From the IMG/VR virus record IMGVR_UViG_3300032291_002057, positions 14,305 to 78,304 of that record: 64,000 nucleotides of DNA; one strand, given 5' to 3'. Below, in pieces: positions 1 to 57,602 of the stretch (position 1 is the first letter of the stretch; each line of letters starts with the position of its first letter). The stretch is from a virus (lineage: Duplodnaviria > Heunggongvirae > Uroviricota > Caudoviricetes). The position numbers and the translations under genes are program-made. The notes beneath the pieces were generated by a model, which saw nothing but the letters and a program-made list of their open reading frames with translations, was not told the DNA's origin and did no database searches.

Positions 1-1
1 T

Positions 2-33449: not shown

Positions 33450-33677
33450 ATGGCAGTTGCTGAATTAATGGGTAAAAAGTATATCTTTGAAGATGGTAAT
33501 GCAATTGAAGTTATTCAAGTAAAAAAGACTGATCCGGATAGGGGACATTTAATCACCTATCTGGTTCATCAAGGTGCTAACAACCTGCCACGTAAATTAG
33601 TTATGTCAACCAAAGAATTTAATGATAACTTTGGTCATTTGTTTGATGTTGACTTAACAGAAGATGACATATATTAG
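33450..33677 (+). CDS. hypothetical protein
   Basis: 75-aa ORF. Confidence 0.35.
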   Translation: MAVAELMGKKYIFEDGNAIEVIQVKKTDPDRGHLITYLVHQGANNLPRKLVMSTKEFNDNFGHLFDVDLTEDDIY

Positions 33678-35262
33678 TGGCTACAATAGAATAAATATAA
33701 AGATGTTTAAAAAATTATTTGGATTCTCCAACCTTACCTTATTAGTAGCACTTATATTAAGTACAATTGCCGCATGGTATAGTATCATAGGTTTAACTGC
33801 TATCTTTGCTGGGGCGGTTATACCCATTATTATTATGGGTTCAGCATTAGAACTTGCAAAGATAATCACAACCGTTTGGTTACGTAAGTACTGGACACGG
33901 TGTAACTGGATTATAAAAATGTATCTAGTGCCTGCTGTTATGGCACTAGCAATATTAACCAGCATGGGTATATTTGGATTCTTAAGTAAAGCACACTTAG
34001 ATCAAGGTGTGCCTACCAGTGATATTGCTGCCAAAGTTGCATTGTTTGATGAAAAGATTAAAACAGAACGAGACAATATAGAGACCAGCAGAAAAGCATT
34101 ACAACAAATGGATGCACAAGTTGATCAAATGTTAGGACGCACGGACAATGACAAAGGTGCTGAACGTGCTGTAACTATTCGTAGACAACAACAAAAAGAA
34201 CGAAGTGCCCTGCAAGCTGACATAGCTAAATCTCAAACTACTATTGCTAAATTAAATGAAGAACGAGCACCTATTGCTACCGAGTTACGTAAAGTAGAAG
34301 CCGAAGTAGGACCAATCAAATACATTGCGGCTTTGATATACGGAGATAATCCTGATGCAAATCTATTAGAACGTGCTGTGCGTTGGGTTATCATATTATT
34401 AGTTCTTGTATTTGACCCACTTGCCCTAATGTTAGTGATTGCGGCTAATCAAAGTCGTGAATGGGATAAGGAAGAAGAAAAAGAAAAAGAACTACAAGCA
34501 TTCATAGATAATAGCAAGGAAGTTGCACGTAGATTAGATTCAGGAGAAAGTCTAGAAGGTTTACCTGACGTAACCACAAATTATGAACCTGACGATGGCC
34601 CCTTGACTGACGAGCAAGTTGAACAACTTAAAAAATCAATAGAAGCATTTAAAGAAGAATCGGTACCAGAACCTATCAATTGCTATAAGTGTAATACTGA
34701 ATTGGTAGACGTTCCTAGTATAGGATTAGTTTGTCCAAATAAAGATTGTAAAGATTCTGAACTAGAAGAAGTTGAAGTTCGAGTAGAAGTCACTGAACCC
34801 ACAATCGACCAAGAAATAACAGCAGATTCATCCGTAGTAGTTACTGAAATAGAAACTGACGGTGTGACTACAGTAAAACCTTTTAAAGAATTAGAGGGCG
34901 GATATGTAGTATTTGACGGCAAGCATATGCATCGTGATGTATTGAAGGATTCACACCCAGATTTATTTAAATTAGTAGCAGACTCAGCAAGATCAAGTAA
35001 TACGAGTTTTGGAACTGATTTCCCAAAAACAGCAGAAAAGGGTGATACCTTCGTCAGGGTAGATGTATTACCAAATCGTGTATATAAATTCGACGGTATA
35101 CGTTGGATTGCAGTAAACAAGGAAATATCAACCAGTTACCTTCATGACCAAGAATATATCAAATTCTTGATTAAAATGATTGATAAGGGTGAATATGATG
35201 TTGAATTGTTGTCCGACACTGAAAAACAACAGATAGAAGAATATTTGACCCAAAATCGTTGA
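33664..35262 (+). CDS. membrane protein with N-terminal TM helices, central coiled coil and C-terminal zinc ribbon
   Basis: Hydrophobic helices at aa 20-110 and ~230-250; CYKCN...CPNKDC. Confidence 0.5.
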   Translation: MTYISGYNRINIKMFKKLFGFSNLTLLVALILSTIAAWYSIIGLTAIFAGAVIPIIIMGSALELAKIITTVWLRKYWTRCNWIIKMYLVPAVMALAILTSMGIFGFLSKAHLDQGVPTSDIAAKVALFDEKIKTERDNIETSRKALQQMDAQVDQMLGRTDNDKGAERAVTIRRQQQKERSALQADIAKSQTTIAKLNEERAPIATELRKVEAEVGPIKYIAALIYGDNPDANLLERAVRWVIILLVLVFDPLALMLVIAANQSREWDKEEEKEKELQAFIDNSKEVARRLDSGESLEGLPDVTTNYEPDDGPLTDEQVEQLKKSIEAFKEESVPEPINCYKCNTELVDVPSIGLVCPNKDCKDSELEEVEVRVEVTEPTIDQEITADSSVVVTEIETDGVTTVKPFKELEGGYVVFDGKHMHRDVLKDSHPDLFKLVADSARSSNTSFGTDFPKTAEKGDTFVRVDVLPNRVYKFDGIRWIAVNKEISTSYLHDQEYIKFLIKMIDKGEYDVELLSDTEKQQIEEYLTQNR

Positions 35263-35322
35263 TAGTGAATACGTTATATATTATACTATCTTTATTCTTT
35301 AACTACACCGAAAGGTAATTGT

Positions 35323-35946
35323 ATGAAACACACACTCACAACTATTGCGTTGGTTAGCTTGCTTTCCGCTTGCTCAAGCACTAAATCGGTTAATCCAGAT
35401 GAACCGATTCGCAATCAGAAACTTTCTACAAACTTTACTCAGGACAATATTAAAATTGAAACAAATTGTGCTTGGTATAAGCCTTGGAAAAGTGATTGTG
35501 AAGTTATCTCAATTGAAGCCACTGCTAGTACTTTTACTAATGGTGGAAGTACCGTACAAGTTAGCGAAGCACGTAAGGTTGCACGTATGGAAGCAAGTGC
35601 AAACGTTGCACATTTTCTTAATGAAGAAGTTACTAGTAATCGTGTAGTAAGCACTATGGCTAAACATATTGAAAAAGCCCAAGATAAAATGTCTAAAGGT
35701 GATAGTAGCGATAGTGACATGACTGACAAGGAAGCTAAAGCAACCAACAAGGCAATACGTGAGAATAGCAATGATACTGCACGAACTGTTACCCGAACAG
35801 TAAACACAAACGCAAAAACCATGCTTAAAGGCTTTTATGTAAAAGATGAAGGTAAGGCTGGTGATCAGGAAGTTTACGTTACTATTCGATGGGATAAAAA
35901 TAGTGACAGTACCGCAAGCCAATTACGTAAACGTTTCGGTAATTAA
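35323..35946 (+). CDS. lipoprotein
   Basis: Signal peptide with lipobox LLSACSS; 207 aa. Confidence 0.5.
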   Translation: MKHTLTTIALVSLLSACSSTKSVNPDEPIRNQKLSTNFTQDNIKIETNCAWYKPWKSDCEVISIEATASTFTNGGSTVQVSEARKVARMEASANVAHFLNEEVTSNRVVSTMAKHIEKAQDKMSKGDSSDSDMTDKEAKATNKAIRENSNDTARTVTRTVNTNAKTMLKGFYVKDEGKAGDQEVYVTIRWDKNSDSTASQLRKRFGN

Positions 35947-35948
35947 TT

Positions 35949-36938
35949 ATGAAAATGCTACTAAGCATAGTAGCATTTTTTTTGTTTGTGTTTAATGCCA
36001 ACGCCAGCAATTACATACGTGTAACAGGCGAGGGTGCTACATTAGAACATGCAAAAGAAAATGCTTTCACAGAAGCCATACAAATTCGTGTAGGTATGGT
36101 TGTACTCAGTGAACGTCAATCTAATTTACGTAAACTAGAAAAAGATATAATATCAGTTTATAGCGCGGGCTACGTTGATGACTTTAAAATAATTGATATT
36201 AGCCATACCTCCAGAACGGTCAAACTAACAGTTGATGTATTGGTTGCCGATAGCAAATTGTTTAATCAAACTCTTTCTACTGGTAAATCAAAAGATAGTA
36301 TTGACGGTGAAAGTGCCGGCGCTAGATATCAAACATACTTGAACCAAAAAAATAAAGGTGATAAGGTATTGAGCAGAGTATTAAATACCTATCCACAAAA
36401 TGCATTTATTGTAAATCAAAAACCCTATAGGTTATCAGTTGATAGTTTTAGAAATGCAGTATTAGAAGTACCGTATCAACTTAAATGGAACTATGATTAC
36501 ATAGTAGCATTGAATGAGGCTATGTCATTACTAGAAGATAGCAAGTTTAGTTTCTTACAAAAAGCACCTAGTAATGTTGTTATCATGGCAAAGAATCCTA
36601 AAGATTTACTTATAGGAGAAAAAAATCATTACAAGTTTAATGATATTCCCTTGCTTAATAACATCAAAGATTCAATGACGGGTGATAAAGAAGTCCGTAT
36701 TATGTTGACAATTGCTGACGTTTCTAATAAAATTCTATACAAGAACTGTTGGATACCTTATTCATTATCAGGTAGAAAATCTAGTTTTTATTCAATAGGA
36801 ATACCCGAAGCATTGATTATATACGGCAATGAAAAAGAGGAAAATGTATTGAGAATAGATATTCCCCCGTCACATGATTACGTGATACACCGTGCAAAAA
36901 ATGTGGAAGTTTCCGTAGTTCCACATAACAAATGTTAA
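35949..36938 (+). CDS. secreted protein
   Basis: Sec signal MKMLLSIVAFFLFVFNANAS; 329 aa. Confidence 0.5.
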   Translation: MKMLLSIVAFFLFVFNANASNYIRVTGEGATLEHAKENAFTEAIQIRVGMVVLSERQSNLRKLEKDIISVYSAGYVDDFKIIDISHTSRTVKLTVDVLVADSKLFNQTLSTGKSKDSIDGESAGARYQTYLNQKNKGDKVLSRVLNTYPQNAFIVNQKPYRLSVDSFRNAVLEVPYQLKWNYDYIVALNEAMSLLEDSKFSFLQKAPSNVVIMAKNPKDLLIGEKNHYKFNDIPLLNNIKDSMTGDKEVRIMLTIADVSNKILYKNCWIPYSLSGRKSSFYSIGIPEALIIYGNEKEENVLRIDIPPSHDYVIHRAKNVEVSVVPHNKC

Positions 36939-36974
36939 AAATAACAGAAGAAAATTAAAACGATAAATTAATAC

Positions 36975-38180
36975 ATGACCACTGATTCTAAACTAAACCA
37001 TTGCTCTTTTTGTAATACACATAAAGATAAAGTTAAAAAGCTAATTGTCGGAGATGATGTTGCAATTTGTAGTGACTGTATTGATTTATGCACCCAGCTT
37101 ATAGTTGATGATTCGTCAATTCCAGAAACCGAAACCAAACCAGAAGAAATAAAACACGACCCTTCATCTATTAAAGAATATTTAGATTTGCATGTGATTG
37201 GGCAAGACAGTGCAAAAGCAGTATTAAGCGTTGCTATTGCTAATCACTATAAACGTATTACTCATCCTCCTAAAGATTTAGAAATACAAAAAGGTAATGT
37301 ATTGATAATTGGACCCACTGGATCAGGTAAAACATTACTTGCTAAAACTGTCGCCAAATATCTCAAAGTGCCCTTTGTAGTAGCTGATGCTACGAGTTTG
37401 ACCGAAGCTGGATATGTGGGTGATGACGTTGAAAGTATGATTAGTATGCTAGTAAACGCCGCGGGCGGCGATGCTAAATTAGCTGAACGTGGTATTGTAT
37501 TTGTTGATGAAATTGACAAGATTGCACGTAAAAGTGAAGGATCTAGTATTACCCGTGATGTATCAGGTGAAGGTGTACAGCAAGCACTATTGAAATTAGT
37601 TGAAGGAACAGTATGTCGCATTCCAGCAGGTGGCGGAAGAAAACACCCCGGTGGTGACATGTTAGAAGTTAACACCAAAAATATTTTATTCATTGCAGGA
37701 GGAGCCTTTGTGGGATTGAAAGAAATTATCAACAATCGCACAAACGGAACAAGTATGGGATTTGGTGCTAAGATTAAAGATCAGAATACAGAGGGTGACT
37801 TAACATTAGTTACGCCTGATGACTTAACACGTTTTGGAATGATTCCTGAATTTATTGGACGATTTACAACCACAGTTAGTATTGGTGAACTAAGTAGAGA
37901 AGACCTTAAAAAGGTATTGACAGAAGTAAAAAATAATTACATCCAACAATATCAATATTTGTTGAGTATTGACGATATTGAGTTAACTTTTACAGACGAT
38001 GCACTTGACCAAATTGTAGATAATTGTCTTAAACTAAAAACAGGGGCACGTGGATTGCATACTGAAATTGAAAAAGTGTTGATGCCACACATGTTCAATA
38101 CTCGCAAATACCGTGAAAACAACATTAAAAAGATAAATATCAATCAGGAGCAAGTATTAAAACCAAAAGCAATTTTATGA
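36975..38180 (+). CDS. clpX: ATP-dependent Clp protease ATP-binding subunit ClpX
   Basis: N-terminal zinc-binding domain CSFC...CSDC; Walker A GPTGSGKTLLAKT; near full-length colinear match to ClpX including the IGF-loop region. Confidence 0.9.
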   Translation: MTTDSKLNHCSFCNTHKDKVKKLIVGDDVAICSDCIDLCTQLIVDDSSIPETETKPEEIKHDPSSIKEYLDLHVIGQDSAKAVLSVAIANHYKRITHPPKDLEIQKGNVLIIGPTGSGKTLLAKTVAKYLKVPFVVADATSLTEAGYVGDDVESMISMLVNAAGGDAKLAERGIVFVDEIDKIARKSEGSSITRDVSGEGVQQALLKLVEGTVCRIPAGGGRKHPGGDMLEVNTKNILFIAGGAFVGLKEIINNRTNGTSMGFGAKIKDQNTEGDLTLVTPDDLTRFGMIPEFIGRFTTTVSIGELSREDLKKVLTEVKNNYIQQYQYLLSIDDIELTFTDDALDQIVDNCLKLKTGARGLHTEIEKVLMPHMFNTRKYRENNIKKININQEQVLKPKAIL

Positions 38181-38398
38181 GTATATTAGGAAGACGAGTT
38201 ATAGTTACTGACGGAAACGTTGAAAAAGCCCTACGTAAATTTAAAAAGAAAATTAACGATTTGGGTTTGTTGCAAGAAGTGCGTGACCGTCAGGAATTTG
38301 TAAAACCTACTGTACAAAGAAAAATTGAAAAAGGTCTAGCTAAACGTAGATGGCAAAAATACTTGCGTGATCAAAGTCTTCCCAAGAAACTTTTTTAA
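38177..38398 (+). CDS. rpsU: 30S ribosomal protein S21
   Basis: EKALRKFKKK...LLQEVRDRQEFVKPTVQRK pattern matches the bS21 family; ATGA overlap with clpX. Confidence 0.8.
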   Translation: MSILGRRVIVTDGNVEKALRKFKKKINDLGLLQEVRDRQEFVKPTVQRKIEKGLAKRRWQKYLRDQSLPKKLF

Positions 38399-38501
38399 CC
38401 TAAATAATAGAATTTTTTGCGTATTTTTATTATAATAAATACGTATTCAGATGCCGATGGTCGGGTCTGAAAACAGTCATCTTGCTTAATAGGAGAAAAA
38501 A

Positions 38502-38954
38502 ATGACAAAAACTTTAACCCTTCGTTCCCTTGACATTCCGTCACTACACAAATTTGGAATCGGTTTTGATTCAATGTTTGATGAGTTACACAGAATCCAT
38601 TCTCAACAATCCAACTCAAACTATCCCCCATATAATATCGTCCAACTCAATGAGGACGAATATATGATTAGTGTTGCCGTTGCAGGATTTGGTCTTGAAA
38701 ATCTTTCAATAACAAAAGAGAAAAACTTTTTGATTATTGAAGGTAAAGAGTATAACCAAGAGAGTGAACAAATTGTACCGAACTATCTACACAAAGGTAT
38801 TAGCAACAGAGACTTCCGTCGTGAATTCAAACTTGCAGACCATGTAGAGATAGTAAATGCAAACTTGGAATTAGGTATTCTGAATATTCACTTAAAACGT
38901 GAAGTTCCTGAAGAACAAAAACCCAAGACTATTGCTATTACTTACACTAAATAA
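38502..38954 (+). CDS. ibpA: small heat-shock protein (IbpA/IbpB, Hsp20 family)
   Basis: GFDSMFDELHRI, YPPYNIVQLNEDEYMISVAVAGF, ISNRDFRREFKLAD match IbpA; RBS AGGAGAAAAAA-ATG. Confidence 0.85.
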   Translation: MTKTLTLRSLDIPSLHKFGIGFDSMFDELHRIHSQQSNSNYPPYNIVQLNEDEYMISVAVAGFGLENLSITKEKNFLIIEGKEYNQESEQIVPNYLHKGISNRDFRREFKLADHVEIVNANLELGILNIHLKREVPEEQKPKTIAITYTK

Positions 38955-38964
38955 TATAATAGCA

Positions 38965-38995
38965 AGTGTGTAGTTGAAAGGCTACACACTTTATT
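38965..38995 (+). terminator. rho-independent terminator after ibpA
   Basis: AGTGTGTAG / CTACACACT 9-bp stem followed by TTTATT. Confidence 0.5.
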
Positions 38996-39016
38996 AAATC
39001 CATTATAGGTAACAAA

Positions 39017-39328
39017 ATGTCAAAAACATCAACTGAAACAAAAATTAGAATTAAACCCAATCTTGCTATCAAAGAACCTCCGTTGTTCAAGATTATCTAC
39101 ATGAATGATAATGTTACTAGTATGGAATTTGTCGTAGGTACGTTGATCGATTATTTTAATTATAATGAAGATACTGCTACTTCTATCACTCATAATATTC
39201 ATGAGGAAGGAAGTGCAATTGTTGCAGTTTTACCCTATGAAATTGCAGAACAAAAAGGCATGGAAGTAACACTTGAAGCACGTAGTCAAGGATTCCCTTT
39301 GCTAGTTAAAGTGGAATCTGAAGCCTAA
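39017..39328 (+). CDS. clpS: ATP-dependent Clp protease adaptor ClpS
   Basis: PPLFKIIYMNDNVTSMEFVVGTL matches the ClpS core (VILLNDDYTPMEFV). Confidence 0.8.
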   Translation: MSKTSTETKIRIKPNLAIKEPPLFKIIYMNDNVTSMEFVVGTLIDYFNYNEDTATSITHNIHEEGSAIVAVLPYEIAEQKGMEVTLEARSQGFPLLVKVESEA

Positions 39329-40023
39329 ATAGTGACTTCTATTCGTTTAGCCCAATATGGTTTACGCTTAAAATATCCATTGTTAACATAGTTGATGCCT
39401 CTTACATGAGTATCAACTATTTTATCATACGTGCCATATGCCCAATGTGATATTTTACTTTCAGTATCTGAGACTAATACTATTCCCAAACTAAGTTGTG
39501 TCATAATATCATCTGGCTCCTCACCAAAATACAAATCTGGGCTAGGCACTGAATTAGACACTAAAATAATTTTCTTTACGTCTAGGTGTTTTTGTAGTCG
39601 TTCTACTGTATTTCTAAGATACAATAAATCTTCATTTCTATGCTGTTCTACTTCCATACCCGTTATTAAATCGGGGATGACTGAATCACCAAACCATCCG
39701 TTAGCACCCGCTATTGCAATTCCGTCTATGATTACTACATGGTGATGTAATATTGCAATATTTCTAACGGCTCTGCACATTCTATATATTTCCTCAGTGC
39801 GTTTTTCTATGGAAATAGCATTTTTATATTCTAGTGAACCTAGAACATAAAAAATGCCTTGATAATGTTTGGATAAATGTAATAGAGTTTGTCTTATTGT
39901 TCGTAAGTCAGAACTAATATTACCTGCTATTATACAGTATAAACTAGTTGCTTTACCTTCCCAATTAAAGCTGTCCTCAGGTGACAGATTTAAATCGCTG
40001 ATAATATCAAACCCTATTGACAT
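39325..40023 (-). CDS. hypothetical protein (weak metallophosphoesterase-like pattern)
   Basis: 232-aa minus-strand ORF; DLNL...AGNIS and HHHVVIIDG segments. Family assignment uncertain. Confidence 0.4.
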   Translation of the reverse strand: MSIGFDIISDLNLSPEDSFNWEGKATSLYCIIAGNISSDLRTIRQTLLHLSKHYQGIFYVLGSLEYKNAISIEKRTEEIYRMCRAVRNIAILHHHVVIIDGIAIAGANGWFGDSVIPDLITGMEVEQHRNEDLLYLRNTVERLQKHLDVKKIILVSNSVPSPDLYFGEEPDDIMTQLSLGIVLVSDTESKISHWAYGTYDKIVDTHVRGINYVNNGYFKRKPYWAKRIEVTI

Positions 40024-40026
40024 TAA

Positions 40027-40347
40027 TTACTTTGCCACTGTCATTCTAGGCTTTCTCGGAGCCTTTGGCTTAGCAGGTGCTTTAGTTTTAGGGGCAGCCG
40101 GAGCTTTTGGCTTAGCAGGCGCTTTAGCTTTTGGTGTTTCAACTGGAGTTGCAGTTTCAACTGGAGTTGCAGTTTCAACTGGAGTTGCAGTTTCAACTTT
40201 CACTGGTTCTGCAACAGGTACAACAGGGGTTTCTATCTTATATGGTACCTCTGTTGCTGTGTGAGGTGCTACACCTAACGGTAACGTTGATGGGGTAGAT
40301 TCTCTGGGTTTGTCCATACCGAATAGATTTTTTAAAAACTTAATCAT
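40027..40347 (-). CDS. repeat protein: TPVETA x4 plus KAPAKPKAP lysine-rich tail (histone H1-like low complexity)
   Basis: Encoded by 18-bp tandem DNA repeats; RBS AGGAGAAAAT on minus strand. Confidence 0.5.
   Translation of the reverse strand: MIKFLKNLFGMDKPRESTPSTLPLGVAPHTATEVPYKIETPVVPVAEPVKVETATPVETATPVETATPVETPKAKAPAKPKAPAAPKTKAPAKPKAPRKPRMTVAK
40057..40198. repeat. tandem repeats (18-bp unit CAACTGGAGTTGCAGTTT x3.5 and an adjacent ~36-bp unit x2) inside the gene
   Basis: Direct reading of 40057-40198. Confidence 0.8.
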
Positions 40348-40447
40348 AATTTTCTCCTTATATTATATTTAATATCGGACAAAAAAACCTTAATTTTTCC
40401 TAATGTATACATAGTTTGCGTGATTTGCTATAATTAAATACAGGATC

Positions 40448-40939
40448 ATGCTATACAAAAATGAGCTACGTGATATGATGCTAGAAGACCTTCCTGGCAT
40501 AGGGTATCAAAAAAGACTCGGTTATAGAACCAACTATGACGAGGTGGTATATCTTTACCGCTTGATTAATAAAACTATATTCAATAATGAACTAGAAATG
40601 CCTGAAATTGAAGTATTTCCTAGATGCAGAAAATATTGGGGAATGTGTTTTGGTTCTTATGAAAGAATTCGCGGCCGTAGAAGTTTTTGTAAAATACGAC
40701 TAATGGACAAATGGTATTGCAAGCAATGGTTAATTAGCACACTAGCGCATGAAATGTGTCATCAGTATCAATGGGATATTATGGGTAATAAACGTGAGGC
40801 TGAAGGCAAGGATAGGCTTATGAGCCATGGAATTAGCTTTTTTGTTTTTAAAGAAAAACTTGCTAAACATGGTATTTCACTAAAAAGAGCGCACGGAAGA
40901 CGCCGTTGGTTTAAATATCAAGATTTCTGGAAGTGTTAA
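40448..40939 (+). CDS. SprT-like zinc metallopeptidase domain protein
   Basis: HEMCHQYQWD (HExxH-x-x-x-x-x) in a SprT-like context. Confidence 0.5.
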   Translation: MLYKNELRDMMLEDLPGIGYQKRLGYRTNYDEVVYLYRLINKTIFNNELEMPEIEVFPRCRKYWGMCFGSYERIRGRRSFCKIRLMDKWYCKQWLISTLAHEMCHQYQWDIMGNKREAEGKDRLMSHGISFFVFKEKLAKHGISLKRAHGRRRWFKYQDFWKC

Positions 40940-40956
40940 GTCTAGATAAATACTAG

Positions 40957-42489
40957 ATGCGTGATATTTTAGAACAATTGGAACAACTGAATGAAAGCAC
41001 TGGATTAGCAGGACGAAAAGTAGGTGATACTTTTAAGAATGATGAAGGCGCAACTCTTACCTTTCAGGATTTGAAGTTTTTTCCTGAAGAAGGAAAATAT
41101 GATCCAGAACAATTGGATCAAGCACTAACTCAAATAACCAAACAAGCACCAAATATTTATTGGCAAAATGAAAGATCCAATAGAACAGGTGGATTTGGCA
41201 TTGCAAGTTTTATGGATGATGCAGGAGGTATAGTCAATGTAGGCCGGTATGTGCAAGAAGTTAAGCCTTCTTATACAGATAATTATATATCCAATAGTTT
41301 TAAAGCACTTGATATGGATTGGCAATACGGTAGCGCTGCCGCTGTTAAAGCACAATCATTTTTAACACCACAAGATTTATTAACTGACAAAATTGATTTA
41401 ACAACTCCTGACATAATGAAACAACTTGCAGTAAGTTTAGGAACAGATAATCCATTGTATGCAGTAGCCCATCATATTGCAATAGGTGGAGAATTACCTT
41501 ATCAATTTAAAGCACCTAGCAATGTAAGTTTTACTGCATTTCGTGATTACTTCTGTGAGATATTGCAACCAATGGCATTACAAAAGGGTACATACGAAGG
41601 TAATGCAGGTGAAGCAGCCGCAAGATTTTTAGATGGAGATTTTAGTGATACTGTGATTACTTTTGATCAAAGTAAAACAGCTGGATTGAGCGATAGTATT
41701 ATGAGTGATTCCAAAGGTCGTTATGTAAAAATCAGTAGCAAAGGTAAAAAAGGAGCAACTGCTAGTACACAAAATTTAATTGATGGTGTGAATGAATTAC
41801 GTCAAACACCAATCGGTAAAAAGATGATTAACAATTACAAAGAAGAAATAGATATTTTAGAAACAATAGCAAATAATGGACAAGCAGATGCACCATTAAT
41901 ATTAGGTATTGAGTACGGTATAATCAAAGATGATGAAGTTGGAATGATTCAAGATTTAAAAAGTCAACGTAACATTAATTTAAAAAATATTGAACGTGTT
42001 GGATTGACTCCTAATCTAACAAAACTAGCAATGGAACGCGGAACAGATAATCCGCAGAATTTGAATTTATATTACCATTTAATGGCTGCAGTAGCACACA
42101 AAGTAGCAAATTATATCAATGAAAATACAAAATTCACTAAAGCTGCTACTGATATTCTTAACAACGGTGCATTGGTACAAATATATACAATAGCTAGTCA
42201 AGGTAAAGAAACATGGACATTAGAAAATTTTAAAACAATATATCCAGGTGAAACTATTAAGGGTGTTTTTTTAGATGCTGGTAAAACGTATTATAGTACA
42301 GGAATAAAAGGTAAATTTACTTTTAAGATTGACAAAGGCAAAGGTGTCCCCAAAGATGATGTAACATCATCGCAATCTGATGTGGGTAGAAATAAACGTA
42401 ACACTGATTTGGCAACAATGGCAAAGCAAGTTGTAGGTGGTGCAGTTAAAGCAAAAGAAACAAGCCCAAGAAAAAAACGAAAAAAATAA
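40957..42489 (+). CDS. hypothetical protein (510 aa, basic KKRKK C-terminus)
   Basis: Long ORF, no family recognised. Confidence 0.5.
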   Translation: MRDILEQLEQLNESTGLAGRKVGDTFKNDEGATLTFQDLKFFPEEGKYDPEQLDQALTQITKQAPNIYWQNERSNRTGGFGIASFMDDAGGIVNVGRYVQEVKPSYTDNYISNSFKALDMDWQYGSAAAVKAQSFLTPQDLLTDKIDLTTPDIMKQLAVSLGTDNPLYAVAHHIAIGGELPYQFKAPSNVSFTAFRDYFCEILQPMALQKGTYEGNAGEAAARFLDGDFSDTVITFDQSKTAGLSDSIMSDSKGRYVKISSKGKKGATASTQNLIDGVNELRQTPIGKKMINNYKEEIDILETIANNGQADAPLILGIEYGIIKDDEVGMIQDLKSQRNINLKNIERVGLTPNLTKLAMERGTDNPQNLNLYYHLMAAVAHKVANYINENTKFTKAATDILNNGALVQIYTIASQGKETWTLENFKTIYPGETIKGVFLDAGKTYYSTGIKGKFTFKIDKGKGVPKDDVTSSQSDVGRNKRNTDLATMAKQVVGGAVKAKETSPRKKRKK

Positions 42490-42501
42490 TATCCAAAATA
42501 C

Positions 42502-42530
42502 TTGAAATAGTATAGACAATACTTTATACT
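42502..42530 (+). promoter_or_regulatory. sigma70-like promoter (TTGAAA-17-TATACT) upstream of clpP
   Basis: Hexamers and spacing, followed by RBS TAAGGAG. Confidence 0.5.
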
Positions 42531-42555
42531 AGCAACAAGTTAATTAAGGAGCATT

Positions 42556-43146
42556 ATGAATTTAGTCCCAATCGTTTTAGAACAAACAGCAAAAGGTGAG
42601 CGTAGTTATGATATCTATTCACGCCTCTTGCGTGACCGTGTAATCTTACTTGAAGGTGAAGTACACGACCAAATGGCAAATCTTATCGTTGCCCAATTAC
42701 TTTACTTAGAAAGTGAAGGCGATAAAGATATCTCAATGTATATCAATAGCCCGGGTGGTAGTGTAACTGCTGGTATGGCTATCTATGATACAATGCAATT
42801 TATCAAACCTGAAGTTATGACAATCGTTATGGGTCAGGCTTGTTCAATGGGAAGTCTATTAGCACAAGCAGGTGCACCAAACAAACGTTTTATTCTTCCA
42901 AATGCACGACACATGATCCATCAGCCTAGTGGTGGCGCACGTGGTCAAGCAACTGATATGCTAATTCAAGTAGAAGAAATTCTTGAAATGAAACGTAACT
43001 TAACCAATATATATGTTAAACACAATTCAAAAGAAAAAACTTTTGAACAACTAACACAAGATATGGAACGTGATAATTTTATGAGTGCTGATCAAGCCGT
43101 AAATTATGGCCTTGCAGACAAAATACTTACATCACGAAATAGTTAA
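42556..43146 (+). CDS. clpP: ATP-dependent Clp protease proteolytic subunit ClpP
   Basis: Colinear match to ClpP: catalytic Ser in GQACSMGS, His in MIHQP, Asp in DNFMSAD; [21 protein letters not shown]. Confidence 0.9.
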
Positions 43147-43160: not shown

Positions 43161-43184
43161 AGCCCCGTTTTTGGGGCTTTTTTA
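43161..43184 (+). terminator. rho-independent terminator after clpP
   Basis: AGCCCC-GTTTTT-GGGGCT followed by TTTTTT. Confidence 0.7.
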
Positions 43185-43187: not shown

Positions 43188-43216
43188 TTGACAATAAAAT
43201 ATTTTGGGCATATAAT
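43188..43216 (+). promoter_or_regulatory. early promoter copy D (TTGACAATAAAATATTTTGGGCATATAAT), leaderless
   Basis: TTGACA-17-TATAAT; ATG 43223 lies 6 nt after the -10. Confidence 0.6.
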
Positions 43217-43222
43217 TCATGT

Positions 43223-43441
43223 ATGAAATCAAGAATTTATATCACTCAAAAAGATAACGACAAATACTTTAAGCAAAAATTACCTACATTCCGTAATGGT
43301 TTTTGCTATATTGAACGTGTTGTAACTTTTGAACAGGACCCAACCAATTCGTTTGACGAGGGTGAGTGGGGTTACATCACTGTAGGTAAACAAAAAGTAT
43401 TCGTTTTTGGTGACAAAAATTCCTTCGAAATTTGGAAGTAA
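43223..43441 (+). CDS. hypothetical small protein (cassette gene)
   Basis: 72-aa ORF directly downstream of promoter D. Confidence 0.45.
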   Translation: MKSRIYITQKDNDKYFKQKLPTFRNGFCYIERVVTFEQDPTNSFDEGEWGYITVGKQKVFVFGDKNSFEIWK

Positions 43442-43445
43442 ATGG

Positions 43446-43474
43446 TTGACAACAAATCATTTTGGGTTTATACT
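43446..43474 (+). promoter_or_regulatory. early promoter copy E (TTGACAACAAATCATTTTGGGTTTATACT)
   Basis: TTGACA-17-TATACT; leader TATAGTCTGTTCAGTTGATTAAAGGAG is identical to copy A. Confidence 0.6.
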
Positions 43475-43505
43475 ATAGTCTGTTCAGTTGATTAAAGGAG
43501 CATTT

Positions 43506-43730
43506 ATGTCTTTCACACAGTACATGATGGATTTTTATGGTCCCCAAAGTGATCTTTACCCCGAGTTGAATTTCAACGAAACACAAATCGCCATCGCTAC
43601 AGGCATCTACAAAATGCGCCTGACTACCGAAGGTAGGGAATTCTATGGGGACACTATGGATCGTGAAATGGTTCGTGATATCATCCTTGAAGCCCGTGAA
43701 AAAGTTTTGCCAGAGTTTGCAAAGGCTTGA
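43506..43730 (+). CDS. hypothetical small protein (cassette gene)
   Basis: ATG 8 nt after AAAGGAG (as in copy A); the track ORF start at 43488 would read through the RBS; stop TGA inside the next TTGACA. Confidence 0.45.
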   Translation: MSFTQYMMDFYGPQSDLYPELNFNETQIAIATGIYKMRLTTEGREFYGDTMDREMVRDIILEAREKVLPEFAKA

Positions 43731-43755
43731 CAATAAATCATTTTGGGTATATAAT
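43727..43755 (+). promoter_or_regulatory. early promoter copy F (TTGACAATAAATCATTTTGGGTATATAAT)
   Basis: Perfect TTGACA-17-TATAAT; leader AGAATCTTAAACAGTC...GGAGTTAAAA shared with copy C. Confidence 0.65.
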
Positions 43756-50056: not shown

Positions 50057-50331
50057 AATATTACACCTTTTACCGAGAGAACAATAATTTTAATGATTTA
50101 TTAAAAGATCCTATTGTTAAAAAAATTGTAGACATTAAGATTCAATGGACTAATTATCTAATGATCGGCATTGAGTCTTATTCAAATGGCAACGATCAAA
50201 ATTTTAGTTATATTACTCTTAAGTATGGCGATGATATGGTTGGTTATCTTTGTAAAGATTTTACACCAATACCTGGTGTAGATTATATTCCCGATAAGAA
50301 TAAGAGTAAATTCAATAAAGTAATTACTTAA
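50044..50331 (+). CDS. hypothetical protein
   Basis: 95-aa ORF. Confidence 0.3.
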   Translation: METMKYYTFYRENNNFNDLLKDPIVKKIVDIKIQWTNYLMIGIESYSNGNDQNFSYITLKYGDDMVGYLCKDFTPIPGVDYIPDKNKSKFNKVIT

Positions 50332-51071
50332 TACAAAGTAGAAAGCAGATATGCTTCCGGTAGTCTTGTTTTAGTATTTTTACTACCTAATAATATTACT
50401 GTTCGTATACCTTGAACGGTATCCATCATCATAACAATACAACCTCCACTTTTTGTTATCCATCCTGTTTTGCTAACAATAAAATGATGTCCGTGTTTTA
50501 CAAGCGAGTTAGTATTATGAAACTCTAAAAACTTCTTTTTATTTGTTTCTACCTTAACACTATTTTTTCCGCTTGAATTTACTATAATGGGATATTTACT
50601 TGCTGCCATTACAAGTTTAACTAAATCTTCGGCTGTGCTAATATTAGACGCAAGCAAACCAGTTGGGTCAGTAAATACGCTAGTATACATATTTAAATAT
50701 TTTGCTTTTTCATTCATAGCTTGTATGCAAGATTTTATACCACCGGGATAATATTCACAAAGCATTTTAGCCGCAGTGTTATCTGATTTTACAATAGCTA
50801 GTTCAATTAAAGTTTTTCTGGTTAGTTTTTTATTATATAAATTTTTAGGGATAGTTTCGGTCAATGATTGATTACTGTCTAAAACAACCATTACAGTCAT
50901 TAACTTAGTTATACTAGCAATAGACCTTATAGTTGAAGTGTTCGTTCCCTCCAACATTTTTCCATTTTCGTCTGCTATTAACCATGCTTGGGCAGTAACA
51001 GAAGGCATTGCGGCATTTACTAAACCAAATGAAAATAGTGATATCAATAATAAGAAAAGATGTTTAATCAT
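50328..51071 (-). CDS. D-alanyl-D-alanine carboxypeptidase (PBP5/S11 serine peptidase family), secreted
   Basis: Signal peptide; S-x-x-K (SITKLM), S-x-N (KSDNTAA) and K-T-G (SKTGWIT) motifs in canonical order. Confidence 0.7.
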   Translation of the reverse strand: MIKHLFLLLISLFSFGLVNAAMPSVTAQAWLIADENGKMLEGTNTSTIRSIASITKLMTVMVVLDSNQSLTETIPKNLYNKKLTRKTLIELAIVKSDNTAAKMLCEYYPGGIKSCIQAMNEKAKYLNMYTSVFTDPTGLLASNISTAEDLVKLVMAASKYPIIVNSSGKNSVKVETNKKKFLEFHNTNSLVKHGHHFIVSKTGWITKSGGCIVMMMDTVQGIRTVILLGSKNTKTRLPEAYLLSTLY

Positions 51072-51081
51072 TATGCAATCC

Positions 51082-51423
51082 TTAGATATTAGGGCCTTTG
51101 GGGTAAGGAATTAAATTCATTTCTATTCCATATCCAATAACGCATGACAATGTATCTTTAGTTGCGATTATAGTCCATGTTTTTGATAATGGATTAACCC
51201 AAACAGTCATTACTGTTCCGGCAGTATCACTTGTTTTTCCATACAAAAAGGGAATTTCTCGAAATGACCCGCTTAATTGTTTTATTAATTTTTCAGTTTC
51301 AAAACAGGGGATATCTGTAACTATAGATTCTACAATAGCGTTTTCTATTGGTTCTTTAGCATGTGTATTATTTGCTAGTAGCCCTATACACACCATCCCA
51401 ATCAGTAGGTAAATTTTGTTCAC
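51082..51423 (-). CDS. small secreted protein
   Basis: Signal peptide MNKIYLLIGMVCIGLLANNTHA; 113 aa; overlaps the cyclase gene end. Confidence 0.45.
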   Translation of the reverse strand: MNKIYLLIGMVCIGLLANNTHAKEPIENAIVESIVTDIPCFETEKLIKQLSGSFREIPFLYGKTSDTAGTVMTVWVNPLSKTWTIIATKDTLSCVIGYGIEMNLIPYPKGPNI

Positions 51424-53425
51424 GTAGTTCTCCTATTCTTTCAATCATCATTTCATAATAATGATCCATTTTACCGTCAAACTCTCCTTTGAGTTTATCA
51501 ATATAGTGTAACGCACTTGTCCACTTTTGTTCACGGTAATAGTCAAGCATTAGGTCATGCAACTCACGTGCCGATAGATACTCTACCATTGCGCCTGCAT
51601 CTGTTTCTAATACTGTATAGATGTTTACACCTTCTTTTTTGCCTTTAACAGCAATACAGTCTAATTCTAACACAAAATATTCGTCTTGTATATACTCTGC
51701 GGTTTTACTGCCCAATACAATTTTCACTCCGTAGGGCTTACTCTGACCTTCCAATCTACTAGCCAAATTAACGCCATCACCCAAACAAGTGTAATCAAAG
51801 CGTTGAATTGATCCCATGTTACCAACGACCACAGTATCGGTATTAATGCCAAGACCCATACCGAAAGCAGGAATACCTTCTGCCGTAACTTCTTTATTAA
51901 ATTCATCTAAACTCCCCATCATTTGTAAACCTGTACGTACAGCATTCTTTGCATGATTAATATCATCTAACGGAGCATTCCAAAATGCCATCTGTGCGTC
52001 ACCAATATACTTATCTAGTGTGCCTTCGTTCTCTATTATTTTAGCAGTCATTGCAGTCATATATCGATTCATAATCTTTGTAAGGCCTTGTACATCTTTG
52101 CCATAGTGTTCGCTGATACTAGTAAAGCCGCGAACATCTGTAAACATAATACTCAATTCACGTGATTCACCGCCAAGTTGCAATAACTTAGGATTCTTTT
52201 GTAATTTCTCAACCATAGCTGGACTCAAGTATGTCCCAAACTGTTTCTTTATTTGTTGCTTTTGTAAGAACTCGCTGATGAACTTGACACCATAGGCGTG
52301 CAGAGAGACCAAGATAATTCCAAGGGTAAACGCAGTACTGTCAAATAACCATAAAAAATTAGAGAACATATAGGCACTACCAAAGACAGCACCAACACAT
52401 AACGCAATAACCGACGCCAATCCAACATAAGTCCACCTTGTTAAAAATAATAATAACACACTTGCAATAGCTATAGCAAGTATTTCTAGTCCATCTGCAT
52501 AATCAGGTCTTTGTATAACTGATCCGTTAATCATTGTTCCGATTACAGCGGCTTGCATATCTTGTGGCCACACACTACCTATACTAGTGGGCACTGGATT
52601 GCCTAATCCTGCGGCTGCTGTACCTACTATCACAATAGCACCCTCAAAGTCTTTTGGCATATTCATTAGACTTACATTTTTGTTTACTTGGCTGTAGTCA
52701 ATCCAAATGCGACCTAAATTGTCTGTAGTTATAGGCCCGAACTTTGGTATACGCATTTTCTCAACGCCATTACTACTCAATTTAACCTGAACAGTAGAAT
52801 CACCTGCGGCTACTCTTAATGTTTCCATTGATAATGATGGGTACACCTTACCATCAACTGTTATGATTAATGGTATTCTGCGATTGACACCGTCTACTTC
52901 AGGTAGAGTACTTACGATACCTACACCTGCAGCATTGTTTTCTAACTGTGGTATGTTAGCTATTAATCCAGGATACTGAACAATTTGATTCATGTGTTCA
53001 GGGCCTAAAATCGCACTACCTGGATTACGAGGTTCGTTGCGTGTTTTATCACTGGGTATGCTTGGAAGCACAACTGGATATTTATTTAAAGTTCGTGCTA
53101 AGATTGGGTCTTGACCCAATCTATCTGAATTAGGCATAAGCACGTTGAAAACAACAAGTCCTGCATTACGTTGATACAGGTCTTCGATAATTTTTGCGTA
53201 CTCGCCTCTTGGTAAAGGCCATTGTCCATACTTAGCTAACGCATCTTCATCAATGTTAACTGTGTAAATGTTGTTAGTTGTTTTTTCTTTGTGTGTTATT
53301 AGTGTGTCAAAATAACGTAATCTAACACTTTCAACAAAGGAAGGGTCTATAGTTCTTACTAATAATACTAAGATTAATGTAAGAAGTGCAGTCCAGGGGC
53401 TTATTATTATTTTTTTAATGTCCAT
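51368..53425 (-). CDS. CHASE2-sensor membrane-anchored class III adenylate/guanylate cyclase
   Basis: N-terminal TM plus periplasmic CHASE2-like region, three central TM helices, C-terminal cyclase domain (FTDVRGFTSISE, YIGDAQMAFWNAP, GLGINTDTVVVGNMGS, LGDGVNLASRLE). Confidence 0.8.
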   Translation of the reverse strand: MDIKKIIISPWTALLTLILVLLVRTIDPSFVESVRLRYFDTLITHKEKTTNNIYTVNIDEDALAKYGQWPLPRGEYAKIIEDLYQRNAGLVVFNVLMPNSDRLGQDPILARTLNKYPVVLPSIPSDKTRNEPRNPGSAILGPEHMNQIVQYPGLIANIPQLENNAAGVGIVSTLPEVDGVNRRIPLIITVDGKVYPSLSMETLRVAAGDSTVQVKLSSNGVEKMRIPKFGPITTDNLGRIWIDYSQVNKNVSLMNMPKDFEGAIVIVGTAAAGLGNPVPTSIGSVWPQDMQAAVIGTMINGSVIQRPDYADGLEILAIAIASVLLLFLTRWTYVGLASVIALCVGAVFGSAYMFSNFLWLFDSTAFTLGIILVSLHAYGVKFISEFLQKQQIKKQFGTYLSPAMVEKLQKNPKLLQLGGESRELSIMFTDVRGFTSISEHYGKDVQGLTKIMNRYMTAMTAKIIENEGTLDKYIGDAQMAFWNAPLDDINHAKNAVRTGLQMMGSLDEFNKEVTAEGIPAFGMGLGINTDTVVVGNMGSIQRFDYTCLGDGVNLASRLEGQSKPYGVKIVLGSKTAEYIQDEYFVLELDCIAVKGKKEGVNIYTVLETDAGAMVEYLSARELHDLMLDYYREQKWTSALHYIDKLKGEFDGKMDHYYEMMIERIGELREQNLPTDWDGVYRATSK

Positions 53426-53428
53426 CTA

Positions 53429-53584
53429 CTATTTAGTAGATTTTGGTTCCTTATTATCTTCATTGTATTTGCTAGGTCCTAATTTCTTTGATTCGTCTAA
53501 TATTTTTTCAGTAGTAGGGCCACGACGGTGACGTGGCAGTTTTACTGGTTCTTTTATTCTAGGCTTTCTGTTAAACCAACTCAT
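53429..53584 (-). CDS. small basic protein (51 aa) translationally coupled to the cyclase, not in the ORF track
   Basis: RBS GGAAGGAAAAAAA-ATG on the minus strand; stop 4 nt before the cyclase ATG; MSWFNRKPRIKEPVKLPRHRRGPTTEKILDESKKLG... Confidence 0.3.
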   Translation of the reverse strand: MSWFNRKPRIKEPVKLPRHRRGPTTEKILDESKKLGPSKYNEDNKEPKSTK

Positions 53585-53598
53585 TTTTTTTCCTTCCG

Positions 53599-53620
53599 TA
53601 AAAAATCCCCTTTCGGGGAA
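53599..53620 (-). terminator. rho-independent terminator (minus strand), possibly bidirectional
   Basis: TCCCC-GAAA-GGGGA followed by TTTTTT on the minus strand. Confidence 0.55.
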
Positions 53621-53622
53621 TA

Positions 53623-53826
53623 TTATTTGTAAAAATATTCATATGCTTTATTTTTAGCTTCCACTTCATCCAACGCAAGCAATGTCACTTGTGCAGTTTT
53701 TCCTTTTATTGTCATGTCAAAAGGAATTGTTCCCGAAAACATAAAATCTTCCGGTAGTTCTACTGTAACTGTATGTTCAGTAAGATTTTTTATTCTATTA
53801 ATTATGTCTTTCATCAATATTGCCAT
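53623..53826 (-). CDS. hypothetical small cytoplasmic protein ending the curli-like operon
   Basis: 67-aa ORF with RBS GGAG on the minus strand. Confidence 0.4.
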   Translation of the reverse strand: MAILMKDIINRIKNLTEHTVTVELPEDFMFSGTIPFDMTIKGKTAQVTLLALDEVEAKNKAYEYFYK

Positions 53827-53849
53827 CCTAAAATGCTCCTATATTGTAT

Positions 53850-55533: not shown

Positions 55534-55542
55534 TAATACACC

Positions 55543-56346: not shown

Positions 56347-56349
56347 TTT

Positions 56350-57153: not shown

Positions 57154-57602
57154 TAAAATTGAAATTGTCCTAATGGTACTGTTATTTGTGTGCTAGTCCC
57201 TGTAGTATCTGTTACTGTTAGATATACATTGCTAGAATCCTTACTCCAAAAAATAGTATTCCCTTCAAAGTTTAGTGTTCCAGAACTACTACCGCCATTT
57301 GCAAACATAGCAGTGGCTAAGTTTTGACTAATCTGTGCATAGATACGACTTTCTAAGTTATTTAAAAATTTCTGTAAATTCGTGTTTTTTGCATCAGAAG
57401 CTGCCTTATCAATTGCTGCCTGTATAGCATCTTTCATGGCTTTTTTTCTAGTGGATTCTTGATTCTCAATTGTTAACACATGACTGCTATAACCTTGGCC
57501 GTTAAAACTAGGACTTTTAAAACTATAATCAGGCAACGGAGCACTATACACAACACTTGTGCAAGTTAATAACGTCAACAATAATATAGGTTTTGTATCC
57601 AT
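57153..57602 (-). CDS. csgF: curli assembly protein CsgF
   Basis: Signal peptide; mature N-terminus FKSPSFNGQGYS (compare FQFRNPNFGG in E. coli CsgF) and C-terminal TGTSTQITVPLGQFQF. TAATG overlap with csgG, same order as E. coli csgFG. Confidence 0.7.
   Translation of the reverse strand: MDTKPILLLTLLTCTSVVYSAPLPDYSFKSPSFNGQGYSSHVLTIENQESTRKKAMKDAIQAAIDKAASDAKNTNLQKFLNNLESRIYAQISQNLATAMFANGGSSSGTLNFEGNTIFWSKDSSNVYLTVTDTTGTSTQITVPLGQFQF

Follow-up and report, generated by a model that had tools for sequence, protein, structure and literature searches.

The window analysed here, a 64-kb stretch of the IMG/VR virus record IMGVR_UViG_3300032291_002057, contains a compact module of 6.2 kb that encodes the unfoldase ClpX, the ribosomal protein bS21 (S21), a small heat-shock protein (sHSP; Hsp20), the adaptor ClpS, a SprT-like metalloprotease and the peptidase ClpP, the last located 4.4 kb downstream of clpX (Table 1). 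With moderate confidence, this cluster is read here as a vertically inherited protein-quality-control module of an extensive clade of uncultured freshwater jumbo phages, including the mechanism proposed for it below. Open reading frames (ORFs) were listed with their translations over the whole window and scored with Pfam and NCBIfam profiles against curated cut-offs. An earlier note, made from the sequence alone, had described the gene order clpX-S21-sHSP-clpS...sprT...clpP; every ORF that it named was found in its place in the ORF list and the order is borne out, except that the 510-aa ORF between the SprT-like gene and clpP had gone unmentioned.

Table 1. Features of the module in the window, with the number of IMG/VR loci (out of 78) in which each gene family was found
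Feature	Position	Strand	Loci of 78	Description
GATAA[AG]T box	36961-36974	+		cgATAAATtaatacATG; ends 6 nt before the clpX AUG
clpX	36975-38180	+	78	AAA+ unfoldase with N-terminal zinc-binding domain, 401 aa
S21 (rpsU-like, bS21)	38177-38398	+	69	73 aa; start overlaps the clpX stop
-10-like box	38431-38442	+		TATAATAAATAC; candidate promoter just upstream of the hsp20 leader; near-invariant columns in 47 relatives
ROSE-like 5'-UTR element	38445-38507	+		candidate RNA thermometer; covers the Shine-Dalgarno sequence and the hsp20 AUG (38502)
hsp20	38502-38954	+	76	IbpA-like small heat-shock protein, Hsp20/alpha-crystallin family, 150 aa
GC-rich hairpin	38964-38991	+		between hsp20 and clpS; TATAAT just upstream at 38955-38960
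clpS	39017-39328	+	75	N-degron adaptor of ClpA/ClpC-class unfoldases, 103 aa
232-aa gene	39325-40023	-	74	predicted metallophosphoesterase fold, degenerate metal-binding motifs
106-aa low-complexity ORF	40027-40347	-	55	PVETAT repeats; C-terminal tail rich in lysine/alanine/proline
Box similar to the hsp20 box	40431-40443			TATAATTAAATAC; before sprT
SprT-like zinc metalloprotease	40448-40939	+	47	163 aa, HEMCH motif
510-aa phage-specific ORF	40957-42489	+	35	accessory; without named family
clpP	42556-43146	+	57	serine peptidase subunit, 196 aa, without propeptide; count limited by contig ends
Terminator-like hairpin and T-run	43161-43178	+		AGCCCCGTTTTTGGGGCT then TTTTT; after clpP, closes the module
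DnaK			18	found in relatives

Spread and phage origin of the module

A scan of IMG/VR with ClpX returned 262 relatives, of which 80 were kept (ClpX 74-96% identical), and all module-region ORFs were clustered in 78 IMG/VR loci, on at least 78 contigs from many metagenomes. These loci share one conserved order: three upstream ORFs, clpX, S21, hsp20, clpS, the 232-aa gene, the SprT-like gene and/or the 510-aa ORF, and clpP. The largest of the contigs kept mostly measure 230-364 kb, several of them 300-364 kb and one 525 kb, and homologues of other module genes were found on contigs of 332-361 kb; the genome size of the clade is taken as roughly 330-365 kb. Additionally, the exact ClpX protein of the window recurs with identical neighbours on separately assembled ENA and Logan contigs, and a further ENA assembly repeats other parts of the window. 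The three ORFs that always lie upstream of clpX in relatives (33664-36938, plus strand, in the window) match no family; they encode a membrane and coiled-coil protein of 519/532 aa, a protein of 207 aa with an N-terminus resembling a lipoprotein signal (LSAC) and one of 329 aa with a signal-peptide-like N-terminus.

The assignment of these loci to phages is based on their membership in IMG/VR, on PHROG matches and on gene content. The window has a coding density of 93% with many short ORFans, and its matches to PHROG families include phrog_11543 (over the full length), phrog_415 (T4-type polynucleotide kinase) and phrog_174 (dCMP deaminase), among others; a T7-type protein kinase is also found among its phage-family proteins. 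In some relatives, HNH and GIY-YIG homing endonucleases interrupt the module. No near DNA match was found among about 50,000 deposited phages. Pairwise ratios of nonsynonymous to synonymous substitution rates (dN/dS) within the clade are 0.066 for clpX, 0.066 for S21 and 0.18 for hsp20, and these three genes are thus under purifying selection.

A distant version of the module (locus L163; NZ_JBBAKG010000031.1, 1-7176) is labelled as a Haliscomenobacter metagenome-assembled genome (MAG). Its ClpX is 59% identical to that of the window, its GC content is 44.7%, S21 is lacking, and ABC-transporter permease genes lie directly upstream of the module. The locus may stem from a mis-binned phage contig or from an integrated element. 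Such MAG labels on phage-like contigs (Nanopelagicus, Haliscomenobacter) were not trusted as evidence of the host. The use of Shine-Dalgarno (SD) sequences, the IbpA-like sHSP and a homologue of ErpA are features that we take to be readable as hints of a proteobacterial host; the hints conflict and no host is called.

The Clp proteins and S21

ClpX matches NF003745 with 516 bits (cut-off 359; residues 5-396 of 401) and TIGR00382 with 489.5 bits (cut-off 370.75), and contains the Pfam domains zf-C4_ClpX (48 bits, cut-off 27), AAA_2 and ClpB_D2-small. In its alignment with E. coli ClpX, the zinc-finger cysteines, Walker A and B, the GYVG pore loop, the RKH loop, the PEFIGR arginine finger and the GARGL sensor (sensor-2) are all kept, and across the clade the CxxC...CxxC zinc finger and GYVG are found in 82 out of 82 sequences and RKH in 81. 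The loop that docks ClpP reads MGF in six sequences (the window and its nearest relatives) and IGF in 61. ClpP scores 300.4 bits against the subfamily model NF001368 (cut-off 249; residues 1-195 of 196) and 261 bits against Pfam CLP_protease, and falls below the stricter equivalog TIGR00493 (282.6 bits, cut-off 308.6). Its motifs GQACSMG, MIHQP and ERD align with the Ser-His-Asp triad of E. coli ClpP, all three being present in 54 of 57 full-length clade sequences, and its first residue falls where mature E. coli ClpP starts, so that it carries no propeptide. Thus, phage ClpX and ClpP probably form a working protease, and the intact functional motifs together with the low dN/dS indicate that the module consists of working genes and not of decaying passengers.

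A phylogeny of each protein had been proposed as a means to date the acquisition. In a neighbour-joining tree, ClpX forms a long branch of its own, with about 50-53% identity to bacteria and to the jumbo phages Atu_ph07 and Phosso alike, so that an old acquisition can be stated and a donor or host cannot be named. A donor inference from a scan of bacterial contigs with ClpX was discarded: the scan was biased by the patterns TEAGYVGD and DVESMI[SN]M, and it gave mixed phyla at about 50% identity.

ClpS does not act on ClpX in bacteria: it docks on the N-domain of ClpA or ClpC, with the E. coli residues N34, D35, D36, T38, M40 and H66 forming the N-degron pocket and E79 and K84 contacting the N-domain of ClpA. 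The window protein is recognized by Pfam with 83.7 bits (cut-off 23) and is 39% identical to E. coli ClpS, and it lies below all nine NCBIfam ClpS equivalog cut-offs (best 74.2 against 149). Near full-length matches, as described by the earlier note, are seen for ClpX, ClpP and IbpA, and in the case of IbpA (see below) and ClpS the scores stay under the equivalog cut-offs. Five of the pocket residues (N34, D35, T38, M40 and H66) are kept in the window, where D36 is replaced by N, and this position is D, E or N among the clade ClpS sequences with a scorable pocket motif. The ClpA-contact residues E79 and K84 are likewise kept, as E75 and K80, and the motif EIAEQK occurs in 63 of 75 clade sequences. 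Profile searches of the ORFs found no ClpA-class gene in the window; scans of IMG/VR with E. coli ClpA gave 211 matches, the best 80 of which share no contig with the 80 ClpX contigs kept, and individual genes of the window recur on a few ClpA contigs, at 50-75% identity and in a different context. The description of the block as a full or whole Clp system was therefore overstated, and ClpS can no longer be regarded as the N-degron adaptor of the phage ClpXP. Since it cannot serve ClpX, the phage ClpS most likely docks on a ClpA-class unfoldase, presumably that of the host. In agreement with this, Iyer et al. (PMC7824862) suggested for jumbo phages that ClpS hands target proteins over to the ClpAP of the host; a hybrid of host ClpA and phage ClpP goes beyond their proposal and is ours. 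Given that ClpS depends on ClpA, what can be tested is such a hybrid host-phage protease and not a self-contained phage system.

The ribosomal protein encoded directly after ClpX is recognized by Pfam PF01165 (Ribosomal_S21; 51.7 bits, cut-off 27) and TIGR00030 (48.8 bits, cut-off 28.95). Its best PDB relatives are bS21 chains of 71 aa, that of E. coli included, and it scores lower against the 64-aa chain 7jil_z. The junction of the two genes by an ATGA overlap, pointed out by the earlier note, can be read from the sequence (S21 ATG at 38177-38179, clpX TGA at 38178-38180) and is conserved across the clade. S21 has no SD sequence, which suggests that it is translated by reinitiation at the clpX stop, and translational coupling of S21 to clpX through the ATGA is what we infer from this arrangement. 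In the loci that carry it, S21 measures 71-73 aa and ends in a conserved LPKKL[F/Y], and more than 1,400 related sequences are present in public data. A tblastn search of phage records with S21 gave no match at E <= 1e-5; Sinorhizobium phage Phosso has an annotated S21 that this search missed, and the protein is therefore too short and too divergent for tblastn.

S21 is missing from about 10 of the 78 relatives and is therefore accessory and not essential to the module. In the loci without it, the gap from clpX to hsp20 is about 100 bp, the same as the gap between S21 and hsp20 elsewhere. Between S21 and hsp20, 18 relatives carry a full-length DnaK (HSP70, 860 bits), sometimes accompanied by an HNH endonuclease (DnaK or homing-endonuclease inserts at L026:11479-13425, L031:11390-14190 and L058:15902-16681), and the distant locus L163 has a different, unrelated ORF of 83 aa at the S21 position. 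The slot between unfoldase and holdase thus holds S21, DnaK or nothing, and S21, DnaK, the SprT-like protease and the 510-aa protein are accessory inserts.

A second translation gene is located 21 kb downstream, where initiation factor 1 (IF-1; 59619-59834, plus strand) matches the infA equivalog TIGR00008 with 105 bits (cut-off 61). IF-1 acts on 30S initiation, like bS21. The mechanical ORF list hides this gene within a longer, GTG-started ORF (59295-59834).

The hsp20 leader and other features of the window

Hsp20 scores 56.1 bits against Pfam HSP20 (cut-off 20.8). Its best NCBIfam match is IbpA (NF008013; residues 8-146 on model positions 2-136 of 137), with 125.5 bits against a cut-off of 212, and the protein is accordingly termed IbpA-like here and not certified as IbpA. 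The C-terminal I-x-I anchoring motif is present, since the protein ends in ...KTIAITYTK and its relatives end alike, and the PDB relatives include AgsA.

The 5'-untranslated region (5'-UTR) of hsp20 is a good candidate for an RNA thermometer of the ROSE type, and is not a demonstrated one. It matches the full Rfam model RF02523 (ROSE_3, the ibpA type) with 28.2 bits (E = 0.019), the only credible Rfam match in the 12 kb around the module, and in six of the nine relatives scanned ROSE_3 was again the only Rfam match, at the same place and with 26.8-34.2 bits. Aligned over 47 relatives, hairpin 1 has a pairing rate of 99.8% with double changes in seven of its nine pairs, and covariation amounts to 80 cells against 19.9 in shuffles, slid controls giving at most 47.5%. 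The second hairpin places a CUUGCU box opposite the AGGAG SD sequence with a bulged G (CUUGCU-UAAU-AGGAG in the model alignment). The CUUGCU box is invariant or nearly so across the 47 relatives, in 43 of which a GUCAU anti-start box is able to pair with AUGAC at the start codon. Similar to ROSE_3 elements, the predicted element precedes an IbpA-like gene, shares the core GAUGCCGA...UCGGGUC in hairpin 1, has a U(U/C)GCU box opposite AGGAG with a bulged G and matches the full model. It differs from them in its shorter SD hairpin with a loop of 4 nt, in the extra GUCAU box, in being phage-borne and in a score below the gathering threshold. No ROSE-like match is found for the sHSP genes of L163 and Phosso, and a literature search brought up no earlier description of a ROSE element preceding a heat-shock gene in a phage.

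The start of clpX may be governed by a signal of another kind. The gene has no SD sequence, and the GATAA[AG]T box recurs at the same distance from the clpX AUG in nearly all of about 60 distinct relatives. This box is a candidate -10-like promoter that would give a leaderless or near-leaderless clpX-S21 mRNA. The shorter motif ATAA[AG]T lies 5-7 nt before the ATG, with no SD sequence, at nine gene starts of the window, clpX and eight others (20929, 22459 on the minus strand, 23008, 24824, 33703, 36975, 40957, 47940 and 61212), which may be a signature of phage transcripts that are leaderless or nearly so. Clear SD motifs are present in 48 of the 109 genes of the window. The covarying hairpin between hsp20 and clpS is retained with varying sequence in 53 of 55 distinct relatives, with a T-run after several of them, and could be either the terminator of hsp20 or the 5' hairpin of a clpS transcript. 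A scan of the module for sigma-70 promoters and terminators gave overall counts no higher than in shuffles, and only individual sites are cited here. The idea of T4-late-type promoters was dropped, as the window shows no enrichment of TATAAATA or ATAAATAC. Downstream of the clpP terminator and before a series of short ORFs, three perfect or near-perfect sigma-70 promoters lie within 570 bp (43188-43755, plus strand), those at 43188 and 43727 being TTGACA-17-TATAAT (12/12) and that at 43446 matching at 11/12; the layout looks like an early-gene region.

The remaining genes of the module are less readily assigned. The 232-aa gene, as conserved as clpS, has no match in Pfam, NCBIfam or a profile search of PDB sequences. 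Its AlphaFold2 model (predicted local distance difference test, pLDDT, 89.9) is matched by Foldseek to PptH, Dbr1, Mre11, MPPED2 and purple acid phosphatase with probability 1.00 and E down to 6e-8, so that the predicted fold is that of a metallophosphoesterase (calcineurin-like). The protein lacks intact DxH, GDxxD, GNH[DE] and GHxH metal motifs, the window clade having DLN, GN, GSLEY and GTYD; a distant homologue in L163 has them intact (DxH, GD, GNDEH, GHxH). The 106-aa ORF has no credible match in Pfam or NCBIfam, and its low-complexity, lysine-rich tail may bind nucleic acid. The SprT-like protein scores 30.8 bits against its Pfam family (cut-off 25.6), with HEMCH as its HExxH motif. For the 510-aa ORF, no match was found in Pfam, NCBIfam or PHROG and no PDB fold match for its AlphaFold2 model (pLDDT 76.7); its 650 homologues are all unnamed, and BFVD returns only uncharacterised proteins of "uncultured Caudovirales phage".

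Elsewhere in the window, an island of bacterial envelope and signalling genes (50328-57602, minus strand) encodes a D-Ala-D-Ala carboxypeptidase, a CHASE2-adenylate/guanylate cyclase, a FecR-domain protein, a curlin-repeat protein, CsgG and CsgF, and thus places a curli-type secretion set on a phage. A 7-deazaguanine (queuosine-type) pathway may be encoded at 3305-7705 (plus strand), where GTP cyclohydrolase I is accompanied by a PTPS/QueD-like gene and a faint radical-SAM gene; GMP reductase and several glycosyltransferase and nucleotidyl-sugar genes are located near these. The segment 61206-63353 (plus strand) contains a homologue of Fe/Mn superoxide dismutase that looks truncated (C-terminal domain only) and an ErpA-type iron-sulfur carrier (159.6 bits, cut-off 117), and a 62-aa ORF at 2191-2379 (plus strand) has a Pfam match to the chlamydial histone-like protein Hc1. 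Lastly, consecutive small genes at 31419, 44807, 45175 and 45348 (plus strand) are preceded by the near-identical sequence ..TTYGGAGTTGAAGAATG; at least the ORF ending at 44810 has the C-terminus ..FGVEE and overlaps the next start, and these genes may form a paralogue family with a common C-terminus.

Weighing the readings of the module

As a quality-control module, the genes could act together as follows. Hexamers of phage ClpX would dock phage ClpP via their IGF/MGF loops, yielding a ClpXP free of host gene expression, and the sHSP, with DnaK in some relatives, would hold aggregation-prone proteins during mass phage protein synthesis. The ROSE-like 5'-UTR would mask the SD sequence and the AUG and in this way gate sHSP translation. 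ClpS, acting on a host ClpA-class unfoldase, could turn ClpAP to N-degron substrates and away from others. In parallel, ribosomes that terminate at the clpX stop codon would reinitiate on S21 and yield bS21 in step with ClpX. The protein would probably enter the host 30S subunit, where, together with the phage IF-1, it may sustain or bias translation initiation. With a ClpXP and a holdase of its own, the phage would render quality control during a long jumbo-phage infection independent of host expression. A remodelling of host protein turnover and ribosome composition, as put forward in the earlier note, is plausible and matches published ideas.

Several observations weigh against this reading. 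The ROSE_3 score of the hsp20 leader is under the Rfam gathering score (28.2 against 43, relatives 26.8-34.2), and the helix that masks the SD sequence is invariant in relatives and therefore gives no covariation evidence. Partition functions calculated from 4 to 45 C leave the accessibility of the SD sequence unchanged, under a nearest-neighbour model, a kind of model that misses the non-canonical pairs of ROSE elements. Neither the window nor the 10 kb past its 3' end contains virion hallmark genes (capsid, portal, terminase, tail), and ClpS has no ClpA-class partner encoded in the window. The relatives that lack S21, about 10 of 78, are scattered over the ClpX tree, and the substrates, partners and timing of the module proteins are all inferred.

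It is unlikely, if conceivable, that the module is mainly a weapon, with ClpXP, and ClpS on host ClpAP, destroying host regulators or defence proteins or poisoning the host Clp machinery. The zinc domain of ClpX for binding substrates and adaptors is kept and the N-degron pocket of ClpS is complete, a SprT-like protease is co-located in more than half of the loci (47 of 78), and the patchy peptidases of jumbo phages, foremost ClpP, have been classed as probably host-directed by Iyer et al. (PMC7824862), whose proposal that phage ClpS brings target proteins to host ClpAP points the same way. Nevertheless, an sHSP, a DnaK in 18 relatives and a heat-shock-type RNA element stand alongside these genes and argue for quality control, not targeted attack; nothing identifies a specific target, and the catalytic motifs are all intact, so that a dominant-negative role is unlikely.

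An involvement of the Clp genes in virion morphogenesis, with ClpP as a prohead or scaffold protease and ClpX as an unfoldase for assembly or packaging, is improbable. Phage head-maturation enzymes commonly have a ClpP fold, the phage ClpP has a sub-threshold match to the head-maturation protease model NF045542 (108.1 bits, cut-off 120), and jumbo-phage ClpA and ClpX have been suggested to aid virion assembly (Iyer et al., PMC7824862). However, the genuine ClpP model is matched well above its cut-off (300 against 249) and over the full length by a protein close to E. coli ClpP, the gene is co-conserved with ClpX, ClpS, sHSP and DnaK and not with capsid, portal or scaffold genes, and the module and its 10-kb flanks are free of structural genes as far as they are annotated.

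With regard to S21, and perhaps other accessory inserts, there is little to expect from the idea of a low-value passenger in a recombination hotspot, which we consider very improbable. The scattered absences that leave a gap of about 100 bp, the DnaK, HNH and GIY-YIG genes that the same spot takes elsewhere and the different 83-aa ORF in L163 would all fit such a hotspot. Against it stand a dN/dS of S21 as low as that of clpX, a near-constant length and conserved C-terminus over 69 loci, the conserved ATGA coupling and the abundance of related S21 sequences in public data.

A joint reading of the module as a degrade-and-replace takeover of the host ribosome is highly doubtful. In such a takeover, ClpXP and a host ClpAP redirected by ClpS would remove free or exchangeable host initiation components, and bS21 and IF-1 would re-equip the 30S subunit and favour SD-less, possibly leaderless phage mRNAs such as clpX; the RNA thermometer would turn on the chaperone arm independently of the host heat-shock sigma factor, and the ATGA coupling would reflect the takeover itself. 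Finally, next to no credence is given to the case that the earlier note had named as fatal to its own view, a mis-join of bacterial with phage DNA, or to the related one of a bacterial contig miscalled viral, and both are close to refuted: the lack of virion hallmark genes in the window, its many bacterial-type genes (curli CsgG/CsgF, FecR, CHASE2 cyclase, ErpA, GMP reductase) and the one distant relative binned as a Haliscomenobacter MAG with adjoining ABC-permease genes would suit them, but they are contradicted by the synteny, phage-only flanking ORFs included, on at least 78 IMG/VR contigs, by identical proteins and order in the separate ENA and Logan assemblies, by the dense, ORFan-rich coding with its phage-family proteins and the homing endonucleases inside relatives' modules, and by a clp arrangement that is not bacterial (see below).

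The quality-control reading can be placed against systems already described. In E. coli and other bacteria, ClpX, ClpP and ClpS have the same domain architecture and functional motifs as in the window, but clpP lies immediately upstream of clpX in E. coli and in all 77 retrieved bacterial loci with an upstream flank, and clpS adjoins clpA in E. coli. In the window, by contrast, clpX comes first, clpS has no clpA neighbour, ClpP has no propeptide, and ClpX is about 50% identical to that of any bacterium sampled. Among cultured phages, the Atu_ph07-like jumbo phages (Agrobacterium phage Atu_ph07, AP-J-162 and Phosso) likewise carry ClpX, ClpP, ClpS, Hsp20 and S21 together with translation factors: Atu_ph07 encodes ClpX, ClpA, ClpB, ClpP and ClpS (PMC6102473), and the Sinorhizobium phage AP-J-162 six Clp proteins, Hsp20, S21 and IF-3 (PMC11242549). 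ClpP, ClpS, SprT-like proteases, Hsp20, ClpA and ClpX have been catalogued in jumbo phages (Iyer et al., PMC7824862). The Atu_ph07-like phages differ from the window in also encoding ClpA and ClpB, and their ClpX, about 52% identical to that of the window, is no closer to it than are bacterial ones. The genes of Atu_ph07 are dispersed from gp2 to gp708. Phosso (L247; PV764938.1, 379000-403000) has the same order on one strand (ClpX, IF-3, ..., S21, ..., sHSP, thymidine kinase, ClpS), but needs about 17 kb for these genes, which are interspersed with many unrelated ORFs, tRNAs, IF-3 and thymidine kinase, within a one-strand region of about 24 kb that also includes ribosome recycling factor and threonyl-tRNA synthetase (ThrRS). 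The combination of genes is thus less unusual than had been assumed, and every gene type of the module has already been reported in jumbo phages.

The bS21 gene and its neighbourhood have precedents as well. Huge phages with IF1, IF3 and S21 were described by Al-Shayeb et al. (2020; PMC7162821), and the presence of bS21 together with IF1 is shared by the window. The bS21 of another phage was shown to enter E. coli ribosomes (Mizuno et al., 2019; PMC6375957), and viral bS21, which is under purifying selection and found mostly in aquatic phages, has been suggested to take the place of the host's bS21, to the benefit of phage mRNAs (PMC9723584, PMC6375957, PMC7162821). Chen et al. (2022; PMC9723584) tallied the genes next to bS21 across 900 published phage genomes, and Hsp20 (n=127) and two families of Clp protease (n=50 and n=47) ranked among the most frequent, without further analysis of this neighbourhood. 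In the clades of that study, bS21 is located on the reverse strand in a block of structural genes and the hosts are predicted to be Bacteroidetes, whereas the S21 of the window follows clpX on the same strand. An sHSP is a common auxiliary gene of aquatic phages, such as cyanophages and pelagiphages: 509 phage records contain a relative of the window sHSP, with 35-43% identity among the best matches listed, and among the top matches listed only Phosso has ClpS (and ClpX) near it. ClpS occurs in 30 phage records, mostly of jumbo phages. What is particular to the present clade is the compaction into 6.2 kb, the coupling of S21 to clpX, the ROSE-like leader and the variable occupation of a single spot by S21 and DnaK.

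Phage bS21 and Clp parts have been catalogued repeatedly. The clade described here is abundant, with hundreds to more than 1,000 related sequences in public freshwater data, and its close relatives with and without S21, and with and without DnaK, at one and the same spot offer a natural comparison for the contribution of each gene. If the hsp20 leader works as a ROSE-type thermometer, the phage would keep a host-style RNA sensor for its own heat-shock protein. Thus, the gene content will come as no surprise to a specialist, and it is the thermometer candidate and the S21-plus and S21-minus variants that make old questions directly testable.

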